Shown one piece after another: positions 42,974 through 44,676 of a stretch of 64,000 bases of DNA. The stretch covers positions 186,631-250,630 of the forward strand of contig METB01000001.1 in NCBI GenBank assembly GCA_001771185.1, written 5' to 3'. This DNA is from a candidate division Kazan bacterium RIFCSPHIGHO2_01_FULL_44_14. GTDB lineage: Bacteria > Patescibacteriota > Kazan-3B-28. How positions within the stretch are numbered: the stretch's first letter is position 1; every line of letters starts with the position of its first letter. The translations under genes were made by a program, and so were the position numbers. The notes under the pieces were generated by a model. That model did no database searches, was not told where the DNA came from, and saw only the letters and a program-made list of their open reading frames with translations.

Positions 42974-43105
42974 ACCTCACGCTCCGCGTGAGGAAATCTA
43001 ACCAATTTATTCCAATTTATTCCAACCTTCGCCAATTTATTTTCATAGATTGGTAAGATTGGTGAGATTGTTTAGATTGACTAAATTTACTCGTGCGAAG
43101 CACGA
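42974..43105. repeat. Hairpin intervening-sequence element in 23S helix 63, same family as the rnpB inserts.
   Basis: On the rRNA strand: CGTGCTTCGCACG, then an AT-rich segment (CCAATCTTACCAATCTA..TAAATTGGCGAAGGTTGGAATAAATTGGA) about 90% identical to 10200-10290, then CCTCACGCGGAGCGTGAGG. Replaces the E. coli helix-63 variable region. Confidence 0.75.
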
Positions 43106-43740
43106 TGTGGGCAGTCCTTATTCCGAAGTTACGGACGCTATTTTGCCGAGTTCCTTAAAGAGGGTTCTCTCGTGCGCCTGAGGCTACTCGCCCTATCCAC
43201 CTGTGTCGGTTTAGGTACGGATGCTTAATATTCTCGTTAGAGGTTTTTCTGGTCAAATTAGATCAGCCAAGTCGTATTGTCCCGAAGAACTCAACTTCCA
43301 TTCGTAGCTCACGGTTGCTCAATAAATTGAACAGTCCCCCGGATTTGCCAAAGGGACCCCATTAACTACTTAGACCAAGAAACCTATCTTGGCTCGGCCT
43401 ACCAACTTGCGTCGCCCCATCACTAGACGTGCAGACCGGTAAAGTCAGCATCCAGCCTACCTTTCGGCAGGTTGATCATCTGATCTACCAATTTGCTTGT
43501 CTTGGGCGAATATCAAGCAGTACAGGAATATTAACCTGTTGTCCATCGCCTACGCCTTGCGGCCTCGGCTTAGGACCGACTAACCCTGGGACGAAAACCG
43601 TTACCCAGGAAACCTCGGATAAATCGGCGTCAAGGTTTTTCACCTTGATCTCGCTACTCGTGCCAACATTCTCACTTCTGCGCGCTCCACCCAACCTCAC
43701 AGTTAAGCTTCACTGCTGCGCAGAACGCTCCCCTACCACA

Positions 43741-43893
43741 CCACTGCTACGCAGTGGAAGCACTAAATCCTAATTACTAAATTCTAAACAAGCCCCAAAT
43801 CCTAATGTCCCAAAAAATGTTTGGAAAATTGAATCATTGGAATTTGTTTAGAGTTTATGATTTCGAATTTCGTATTTCCATTGCGGAGCAATG
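43741..43893. repeat. Hairpin intervening-sequence element in 23S helix 45.
   Basis: CCACTGCTACGCAGTGG, an AT-rich palindrome, CCATTGCGGAGCAATGG. Inserted between ...GATACCGAAGATGCGGATG and TGTGGTAGGGGAGCGTTCTG (E. coli ~1164-1185). Confidence 0.75.
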
Positions 43894-44518
43894 GCATCCG
43901 CATCTTCGGTATCTAGCTTAGCCCCGTTACATTTTCGGCGCAGACACACATCGACCAGTGAGCTATTACGCTATCTTTAAAGGATGGCTGCTTCTAAGCC
44001 AACCTCCTGGTTGTTAATGTGTCTCCACTTCCTTTCACACTTAGCTAGATTTAGGGACCTTAGATGGCGGTTTGGGCTGTTTCCCTTTCGACATACGACG
44101 CTTAGCCGCCGTTTTCTGACTCCCATGCTTTAACCAGACAGTATTCGGAGTTTAATTGGATGCGGTACGGTAAACCGCCCGAATCCATTCAGTAGCTCTA
44201 CCACTGCTGGGAACGCTATGAGGCTATACCTAAATATATTTCGGGGAGAACCAGCTATCTCCGGGTTCGATTGGAATTTCTCCGCTAACCACAGCTCATC
44301 ACCCCACTTTTCAACGTAGGTGTGTGCGGCCCTCCACTGCTTCTTAGGGCAGCTTCAGCCTGGCCATAGTTAGGTCACCCGGTTTCGGGTCTAATCCCTG
44401 CTACTTCAGTCGCGCTATTCGCACTTGCTTTCGCTTCGGATACGGATTAAAAATCCTTATCCTTGCAACAGAAATTAACTCGTTGGCTCATTCTACAAAA
44501 GGCACGCCGTCACCCCAT

Positions 44519-44676
44519 CAGCACACAATGCTGGATGAAATAACCAAATTCCAAATCACAAATCACAAACAAACTCCAAATTTAAATTTCTAAACAAAAA
44601 AAACAGAAAAATTATTATCTGGTGCTCATTTGATGATTGATTATTGGCGTTTGGTTACTCCAGCACTCTGTGCTGG
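44519..44676. repeat. Hairpin intervening-sequence element in 23S helix 25.
   Basis: AGCACAGAGTGCT, an AT-rich low-complexity palindrome, AGCATTGTGTGCT. Inserted just 5' of GGCGTGCCTTTTGTA (E. coli ~530-545). Confidence 0.7.

Follow-up and report, generated by a model that had tools for sequence, protein, structure and literature searches.

Bacterial rRNA intervening sequences (IVSs) occupy helix 9 (H9), H25 and H45 of 23S rRNA, where the tetraloop has been replaced by an extended stem-loop that is excised by RNase III (PMC4990558). In the Candidate Phyla Radiation (CPR, or Patescibacteria), 82% of 23S and 48% of 16S rRNA genes carry insertions of at least 100 bp (PMC11270868). The survey of Tsurumaki et al. 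(2024) gave the numbers and positions of inserts of 100 bp or more, with the guess that they were IVSs, those that are not introns being left as "uncharacterized, probably IVS" (PMC11270868), and the RNase P RNAs of the CPR have been described just as having large helix extensions (PMC8172020). Five hairpin elements, three in the 23S rRNA gene and two in the RNase P RNA gene (rnpB), lie in a 64-kb stretch of the ~0.7-Mb genome of a candidate division Kazan bacterium of the CPR (contig METB01000001.1), hereafter the window, which covers ~9% of that genome. These elements, first noticed in a reading of the letters without database searches (the sequence-only reading), and their relatives in other CPR lineages are the subject of this article.

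The elements form a sequence family with conserved termini that look bistable, found in sense orientation in stable RNAs of three kinds, at helix tips where they are tolerated. Pairing within them is maintained at the RNA level, and copies are exchanged between sites and between lineages. From their sites, their replacement of tetraloop hairpins and their sporadic distribution, all of which resemble those of RNase III-excised IVSs, we infer that the element behaves as an IVS. The reading favored here, by analogy and with about even confidence, is that of a mobile, palindromic, IVS-like family in CPR stable RNAs that encodes no open reading frame (ORF) and would be excised by RNase III as classical IVSs are. 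In a literature search of incomplete coverage, no description of a shared family, of its termini or of its presence in RNase P RNA was found.

Five elements in the 23S rRNA and RNase P RNA of Kazan

The 23S inserts were placed by MAFFT alignment to Escherichia coli rrlB together with cmscan alignment, and the rnpB inserts by cmscan. The sequence-only reading had put the former at H25, H45 and H63, and the alignment to rrlB bears this out with boundaries within 1-3 nt; the Rfam covariance models likewise put the inserts at the helices named and not elsewhere. The same reading had called all three helices classic IVS sites, which is right for H25 and H45 and wrong for H63, the common sites being H9, H25 and H45 (PMC4990558). 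The two inserts that it saw in RNase P RNA fall in P9 and P12, the second ending at 10435 rather than 10445 (Table 1). The P9 loop measures 135 nt, compared with 8 in the Rfam model, on a very short host stem, and the P12 of Kazan is made up of the element alone. As the inserts are identical across four independent assemblies, the elements are not assembly artefacts.

Folded one by one, the inserts give stable rods, with folding z-scores of -6.8 to -8.1 against shuffles. The P9 element (-61.5 kcal/mol, z = -7.6) has as its middle a rod of CCAATCT/AAATTGG repeats, and the P12 element has heptad arms, in which (NNNNCAA)n pairs with (TTGNNNN)n. Scored with a full-length covariance model of the family (R2), the P12 element reaches 100.9 bits in the sense and 59.7 bits in the antisense direction, and the H63 element, which stands on the host stem GCCCAC/GTGGGC, reaches 35 bits. 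The H25 element (-63.7 kcal/mol sense, -42.8 antisense) and the H45 element (-56.5 sense, -51.3 antisense) are divergent members. An earlier model (R1), in which the termini were joined by a GAAA loop, was unable to span the 60-120-nt middle and gave spurious combinations; R2 replaced it.

Similarity between the H63 copy and the first rnpB copy, proposed as roughly 90% identity over about 70 nt, amounts to 94.7% over 76 nt, and to 83% over 131 ungapped nt. The proposal that all five copies are one related family holds for their shared architecture; in sequence, the H25 and H45 copies are only weakly similar to the others (R2 scores of 16.5 and 24-25 bits). A scan of the window for 7-3-7 GC palindromes recovered nine of the ten element termini, a scan for paired palindromes recovered all five elements, and hairpins of the CC..GC/GC..GG type occur in the window exclusively within 23S and rnpB. 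The degenerate hairpin motif of the sequence-only reading is not a chance pattern: its eight matches, from four sites that each count on either strand, all lie in rnpB, whereas chance would give 0.02. A reversed insertion of the H45 copy was also considered. Its termini match both ways (28 vs 29 of 34 positions by eye), and because the termini are palindromes no orientation can be claimed for this copy.

Two competing folds of the termini

The original description of the element as a GC hairpin, an AT-rich palindrome and a second GC hairpin captures a real architecture, but the minimum-free-energy fold of every copy joins all three parts into one long rod, the GC "hairpin" at the 5' end being paired through G·U pairs to the one at the 3' end. 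The rod extends the host helix by an imperfect duplex of 45-75 bp. Besides being a 7-3-7 palindrome in itself, each terminus is complementary to the other. Both fold models were scored by pair counts in an alignment of the termini of 30 distinct copies (alignment A1). With the rod model, 87% of cells are paired, covariation is 0.52 compared with 0.21 in shuffles, and the triloops covary as well (UUC/GGA, GCA/UGU, GUA/UAU and others). The rod keeps a conserved 2x2 A·C/C·A mismatch, which follows a continuous 12-bp basal helix. With the local-hairpin model, 96% of cells are paired, nearly all as Watson-Crick pairs, and covariation is 0.44 compared with 0.19 in shuffles. The mismatched positions of the rod coincide exactly with positions that the local hairpins pair. 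Since both folds covary and the rod mismatches pair locally, both folds appear to be selected, and under these models the termini look bistable. The isolated rod is on average ~7 kcal/mol more stable than the cruciform. An idea that a GNA triloop or "GCGAAGC mini-hairpin" defines the termini was dropped, as variant copies are without such loops.

In 32 of 33 elements, the sense strand folds more stably than the antisense strand, with a mean difference of 9 kcal/mol, and the same holds for 24 of 33 when the middles are folded alone; R2 gives ~100 bits to the sense and ~60 bits to the antisense strand. The G·U pairs and this sense-strand advantage point to selection on RNA, and not just on a DNA palindrome.

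The middles are lineage-specific AU-rich rods of short tandem repeats, mostly heptads. In the best-aligned subfamily (alignment A2), the arms consist of four heptads, (NNNNCAA)4 with (TTGNNNN)4, so that CAA/UUG is invariant every 7 nt, and the repeat units of other subfamilies include CAGTCGT/CTGATAG, CCATTAG and CCAATCT. Rods of this kind also occur on their own. The spacer between def and fmt in the window holds a rod (Table 1) that resembles the H45 and H25 middles, carries repeat families D2 and D13, scores ~24.5 bits with R2 on both strands and has its more stable fold on the minus strand. Spacers or leaders of two other rRNA operons (L021, 405-470; L063, minus strand 1010-1190) hold same-subfamily rods without the conserved termini, which share their heptamer subfamilies with the elements inside their own 23S. 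From these spacer copies it follows that the rod module is not confined to mature RNA regions, while the terminus-bearing form is. A sliding-window RNAfold scan for rods was dropped as far too unspecific.

Near-identical conserved hairpins at both borders of a sense-oriented insert, found in stable RNAs only and missing from the spacer copies, would also fit protein-dependent splicing. A hairpin-specific endonuclease would act at both termini and an RNA ligase, for example RtcB, would join the ends, as an analogue of archaeal bulge-helix-bulge (BHB) introns; if insertion took place at the RNA level, into exposed loops, this could account for why only abundant stable RNAs are hosts. The borders are without BHB geometry, however, and a BHB (3-4-3) motif was rejected there in view of the continuous basal helix with its symmetric internal loop. 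Exact removal would furthermore leave P9 and P12 without loop or stem, and no candidate enzymes were identified, which makes splicing quite unlikely.

Distribution of the family in the CPR

The family was sought beyond the window with the pattern GTGCTTCGCAC, a gap and AYGCGGAGCGT, and a match was taken as a true rod if its middle was AT-rich. Species-representative genomes gave 17 matching loci, among them six true rods. Four of these are in Roizman-, Levy- and Daviesbacteria and in another Patescibacteria metagenome-assembled genome, and two are on contigs binned elsewhere, one of which (L016) has a 23S segment that proved on checking not to be gammaproteobacterial. The Kazan genome of the window was not among the genomes returned. 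Metagenomes of the Joint Genome Institute gave 41 matching loci with 27 true rods. In total, ~33 rod-forming elements share the termini …GTGC-TTC-GCAC … AYGC-GGA-GCGT…. No match to the element was found in a scan of viral contigs.

The flanks were mapped to host genes with Rfam and BLAST, and every copy with a mapped host is in sense orientation. In 23S rRNA, the sites are the 5' leader, H9/10 (E. coli positions, Ec, 131-158), H15 (Ec~270-290), H25, H45, Ec~1406, H63, the tip of H68 and the L1-stalk region; in 16S rRNA, helix 6; and in RNase P RNA, J5/7 (the P5.1 position of type B RNAs), P9 and P12. RNase P RNA copies beyond Kazan are found at four loci (L030, L040, L050 and L059). The same termini occur in 16S, 23S and RNase P RNA of distant CPR lineages, which strongly supports the view of the sequence-only reading that a mobile, structured element colonizes stable-RNA genes. 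Among the deeper lineages that bear identical canonical termini, host 23S segments are just 66-75% identical. One 23S gene can hold up to six copies (L016), and at L031 a copy replaces the tip of H68, on the subunit-interface side.

Scanning ~180 kb of CPR DNA for the architecture and with R2 revealed more copies with variant termini, only in the same kinds of genes. The sole terminus-bearing copy outside a recognized RNA gene is the doubtful, intergenic case of L065 (minus strand 615-740), which sits on a perfect 10-bp stem, GCACGCAGAT/ATCTGCGTGC; this locus may mark an unrecognized non-coding RNA.

Two of these contigs have further features of their own. In the 23S gene of L016, one element (minus strand 7575-7680) fills nearly all of the space between Ec2093 and Ec2223, the expected place of H76-78 of the L1 stalk, and of the five more elements in that gene one lies directly 5' of nucleotide 1. 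In the RNase P RNA of L059, P3 is lengthened by a hairpin (2565-2610) whose tip, GUGC-GAA-GCAC, is the complement of the core of the element's 5' terminus.

Movement between sites and lineages

Comparisons of the middles, which exclude the termini, reveal near-identical sequences at different helices and in different RNAs. Between H45 of L021 and H25 of L024, the identity is 92%; among L061 H45, L063 H15 and L063 H25 it is 93-96% (96% between L061 H45 and L063 H15); and the H25 middle of L054 is 95% identical to that of L035 H15, 92% identical to that of L036 H15 on the same contig, and 80% identical to that of the RNase P RNA copy of L050. In Kazan, the H63 and P9 middles are 88% identical, and the P12 middle shares 89-92% identity with both RNase P RNA copies (P9 and P12) of the relative L030, whereas the P9 copy of Kazan matches the H63 copy of its own genome instead. 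These middles indicate that the family moves between sites, and as judged from the identities the pattern is mainly one of within-genome homogenization, to which sharing among lineages is added.

Close relatives also differ in whether a site is occupied or empty, which together with the shared middles upholds the mobility that had been proposed. At H45, the native hairpin TCCGCCGTAAGGCGGA is present in L039 and an element in L020, L024 and L061; at H15, L024 has the native TCCGGCGCAAGCCGGA, L039 and L044 are also empty, and L033, L034 and L063 carry the element. In these comparisons of relatives, the element substitutes the native GNRA terminal hairpin exactly. The 8-nt flanks of 33 copies show neither a target duplication nor a shared motif.

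The manner of insertion bears on whether the family could be a DNA-level miniature transposon, either a REPIN (a doublet of repetitive extragenic palindromic, REP, sequences) or a derivative of the insertion sequences IS200/IS605. Its terminal hairpins would then bind an HUH (TnpA/RAYT-like) or other transposase, and the RNA structure would be a by-product. The termini are direct repeats of one palindrome and form perfect Watson-Crick hairpins, like left-end and right-end hairpins or REP doublets, and a strict single orientation fits strand-specific single-strand transposition if the rRNA genes and rnpB are co-oriented with replication. However, such an element would not be expected to replace a native hairpin precisely with no target-site duplication, and targeting of the IS200/IS605 type was rejected in the absence of a conserved 5' flanking tetranucleotide. 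Except for L065, which is also the only database-wide pattern match outside a stable-RNA gene, the ~180 kb of CPR sequence hold no intergenic terminus-bearing copy. No transposase was seen near any copy or in the window, the viral contigs gave no match, and the G·U pairs and sense-strand advantage again speak for selection on RNA; a DNA transposon is therefore unlikely.

It is very improbable that there is no family at all and that helix extensions made independently by slippage are alike merely in composition. The arms are indeed simple tandem repeats that are also found between genes of the same genome, and the H25 and H45 copies of Kazan resemble the others weakly. Independent slippage would, however, not yield identical terminal cores of 11+11 nt with flanking motifs in different RNAs and phyla, irregular middles that are 88-96% identical at different sites, or a hairpin motif so far above its expected number in the window.

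Excision or retention

Under the favored reading, the long duplex would be cut out by RNase III after transcription, leaving the host RNA in pieces that its own structure would hold together. The two new ends might be clamped by the GC termini, or capped by them once refolded as local hairpins, and such a role would explain why both folds are under constraint and why spacer copies have lost the termini. Spread between organisms would occur most simply via recombination through the conserved flanking rRNA sequence. In agreement with excision, Brown et al. (2015) are quoted as having judged CPR rRNA insertions in general to be missing from transcripts (PMC9297842), and the leader and trailer of the Kazan 23S rRNA form a long processing duplex.

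Several observations weigh against this reading. Roughly every 7 bp the rods are interrupted by a mismatch or a G·U pair, which may not suit RNase III. No rnc gene was found among the window ORFs scanned, which is uninformative given the share of the genome that the window covers. Were both the P9 and the P12 element excised, RNase P RNA would be left with a middle piece of ~33 nt that contains conserved J11/12 nucleotides. Such a piece looks fragile and to our knowledge has no precedent, which favors retention, at least in RNase P. All occupied sites except H68 are, as far as known, positions of eukaryotic expansion segments, where extra helices are retained. In addition, the statistics of strand asymmetry and covariation overstate significance because the copies are related and not phylogenetically independent, and the conservation of the termini is partly ascertained by the search pattern itself.

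The main rival is that the elements are retained, like eukaryotic expansion segments or the lengthened P12 of cyanobacterial RNase P RNA, and protrude from the mature ribosome or RNase P either as long helices or in the form of four-way junctions that bear two small hairpins. Almost all of the sites lie at the tips of peripheral helices, and pairing is kept on the RNA strand, as in real expansion segments. Retention is especially plausible for RNase P RNA, in which the Kazan P12 consists of the element only, the P9 host stem is very short and a fragmented molecule would need its ~33-nt middle piece, and Lui et al. described CPR RNase P RNAs with "large extensions of helices" (PMC8172020). On the other hand, retention gives no reason for identical 17-nt termini across lineages with ~70% identical rRNA cores, nor for two mutually exclusive conserved folds. 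It also sits poorly with the reported absence of CPR rRNA insertions from transcripts and with a copy at the H68 tip, on the side of the subunit interface. Overall, retention is less likely than excision, and the transposon and splicing readings are less well supported than it is.

A more far-reaching proposal, though a long shot, is that the bistable terminal pair is a dedicated processing or mobility signal, used either for excision from any stable RNA by a hairpin-specific endonuclease, with or without a ligase, as a bacterial counterpart of archaeal BHB splicing, or for RNA-level movement into the exposed hairpin loops of abundant RNAs. If this were true, the family would represent a selfish element of a new class that has an excision chemistry of its own, and no bacterial RNase P RNA before that of the CPR would have been found interrupted or fragmented in nature.

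Host genes and other features of the window

Table 1. Elements, host genes, introns and the rod-only relative in the Kazan window (positions in the window; Ec, E. coli 23S numbering)
Feature	Position	Strand	Description
RNase P RNA, bacterial type A	10083..10733	+	651 nt; Rfam RF00010, 111.8 bits vs gathering score 100
P9-loop element	10167..10297	+	5' CCAGTGC-TTC-GCACTGG (10167-10183); 3' CCAATGC-GGA-GCGTTGG (10281-10297)
P12 element	10330..10435	+	Termini CCAGTGC-TTC-GCACTGG / CCAACGC-GGA-GCGTTGG; in cmscan P12 loop
23S rRNA	40612..45394	-	~4.78 kb; three hairpin elements, three introns and further expansions
23S intron after Ec~2593	40924-41659	-	Weak group I match, 34 bits; LAGLIDADG_1 ORF 41048-41536
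23S intron after Ec1951	42300-42588	-	Group I (Intron_gpI), 54.7 bits
23S intron after Ec1931	42599-42787	-	189 nt; no Rfam match
H63-tip element	42976..43106	-	Ec 1709-1751; canonical termini (A)TCGTGC-TTC-GCACGA(G) / CTCACGC-GGA-GCGTGAG
H45-replacing element	43741..43894	-	Ec 1162-1186; variant termini CCATTGC-TCC-GCAATGG / CCACTGC-GTA-GCAGTGG
H25-tip element	44518..44676	-	Ec ~523-560; variant termini CCAGCAC-AGA-GTGCTGG / CCAGCA-TTGTG-TGCTGA
Rod-only relative	46956..47097		def-fmt intergenic spacer; ~140 nt, AT-rich CTAAATC heptamers, no GC-palindromic termini

The RNase P RNA gene is swollen by its two elements, and its Rfam score is barely above the gathering score. Its P13 region (10455-10520) measures 53 nt, compared with 9 in the Rfam model, and an extra 27-nt insertion lies near the 3' end (10663-10690).

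The extent of the 23S gene, from 45394 to ~40612, was established by reading of the sequence. The full-length large-subunit match of Rfam ends wrongly at 41576 because the third intron interrupts the gene and the 3' domain (~40917-40612) lies downstream of it. The intron positions agree with published hot spots of CPR 23S introns (PMC11270868). Intron_gpI matches in Rfam occur only at the introns after Ec1951 and Ec~2593, and none at the hairpin elements. Leader and trailer of the 23S rRNA pair as a ~55-bp duplex, a processing stem of the RNase III type. Three other expansions of the 23S rRNA, at Ec131-148 (45175-45263, an 86-nt hairpin), Ec~275 (44967-45033) and Ec~1415 (43424-43508), all on the minus strand, are without GC-palindromic termini, and the first scores only 10 bits with R2; they could be older or degenerate elements. 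Rfam finds the 5S gene ~640 nt beyond the true 3' end of the 23S gene and no 16S gene in the window; 16S and 23S are not linked. The spacer between 23S and 5S (39855-40612, ~640 nt) contains a small ORF at roughly 40185-40471.

Other repeats of the window include a 23-nt tandem array of five copies (17466-17603), a 97-nt repeat that is 86% identical between 48410-48506 and 51895-51991, an exact 39-nt repeat with the hairpin GCGCTTCGC (51844-51882 and 63123-63161), and a ~130-nt repeat that flanks prfA on both sides (58228-58360 and 59839-59971). At 34181-34855, 39-nt repeats (87% identical) surround an ORF of 175 aa with a PaaX_M (Cas2-like) domain, and ORF and repeats might together make up a small cassette that is mobile. 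A large GC-containing palindrome, which folds with -73 kcal/mol on the plus and -67 kcal/mol on the minus strand, is situated at 39016-39153, downstream of the rRNA region, and has no relation to the element family.

Implications for CPR stable RNAs

With its termini, structure and range of host genes, a part of the uncharacterized CPR insertions is now defined, and a single element is seen to cross 16S, 23S and RNase P RNA as well as phyla. The elements explain CPR RNase P RNAs that score near or below Rfam thresholds (PMC8172020 for CPR RNase P), and the search pattern and covariance model enable such inserts to be annotated and masked. A 23S rRNA in several pieces and a fragmented or giant RNase P RNA are predicted. 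If the elements are excised, they would be, as far as known, the first IVS-type element outside rRNA.

Comparison with known systems

Among small insertions in stable RNA, archaeal BHB introns, which are processed by proteins, resemble the elements in having symmetric borders. The elements differ in being without the BHB motif, and BHB introns often lie in the conserved core rather than at helix tips. The sites of the elements are the same tolerant positions as those of eukaryotic and archaeal expansion segments (H9, H15, H25, H45, H52-54, H63 and H78; helix 6 of 16S rRNA), and both are helical extensions of existing helices. Expansion segments, in contrast, are vertically inherited and GC-rich in many lineages, and they are not known to form a transferable sequence family that RNase P RNA also hosts.

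In heterocyst-forming cyanobacteria, P12 of RNase P RNA is reportedly lengthened by short tandemly repeated repetitive (STRR) heptanucleotides, in work that goes back to Vioque in 1997. The likeness lies in tandem heptamers that elongate P12 of a type A RNase P RNA, those of the elements being CAA/TTG heptads. STRRs are abundant intergenic repeats that are not known to have GC-palindromic termini or to be shared with rRNA helices, and they are reportedly retained in the mature RNA. STRR-like heptamers and the introns L1931 and L2593 had at first suggested a cyanobacterial source for the window; this was rejected, as exact look-ups of three window proteins led to candidate division Kazan metagenome-assembled genomes of the Rifle aquifer (RIFCSPHIGHO2_01_FULL_44_14 and RIFCSPLOWO2_01_FULL_45_19).

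The elements are short, non-coding, hairpin-forming, under selection for their structure and mobile within and between genomes, as are REP sequences and REPINs, repeats like miniature inverted-repeat transposable elements (MITEs), and the GC clusters and double-hairpin elements of mitochondria (PMC3116915; PMC4478555). As in MITEs and REPINs, the termini are complementary and each is palindromic. REP sequences and MITEs, however, are mainly intergenic, high in copy number and present in both orientations, whereas the elements are confined to stable-RNA genes and to a single orientation. The GC clusters of yeast insert at a defined target, AG (PMC4478555); the elements show no target duplication.

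Bacterial rRNA IVSs are known from Salmonella, Yersinia, Leptospira, Campylobacter, Coxiella and Alphaproteobacteria, and like the elements they turn the tetraloops at the tips of H9, H25 and H45 into extended stem-loops (PMC4990558). They are bordered by complementary sequence and transcribed within the precursor (PMC4990558), and their sporadic distribution, which suggests horizontal transfer, is matched by the pattern of occupied and empty sites in the elements. Classical IVSs, by contrast, have been reported in rRNA genes only, whereas two of the five Kazan copies are in RNase P RNA; no IVS family has been described with double-palindromic termini, a heptad rod and up to six sites per 23S; and RNase III excision is proven for classical IVSs and predicted for the elements. 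The short CPR rRNA insertions of Tsurumaki et al. (2024), among them those at sites 23IS2 and 23IS4, are without ORFs, less than 200 bp long and located at IVS-like positions in 23S and 16S rRNA (PMC11270868). A term search of that article found no mention of conserved termini, of a hairpin or palindrome, of a family, of movement between sites or of RNase P RNA (PMC11270868). Its uncharacterized non-intron insertions, like those of Brown et al. (2015), are almost certainly the same objects as the elements described here.

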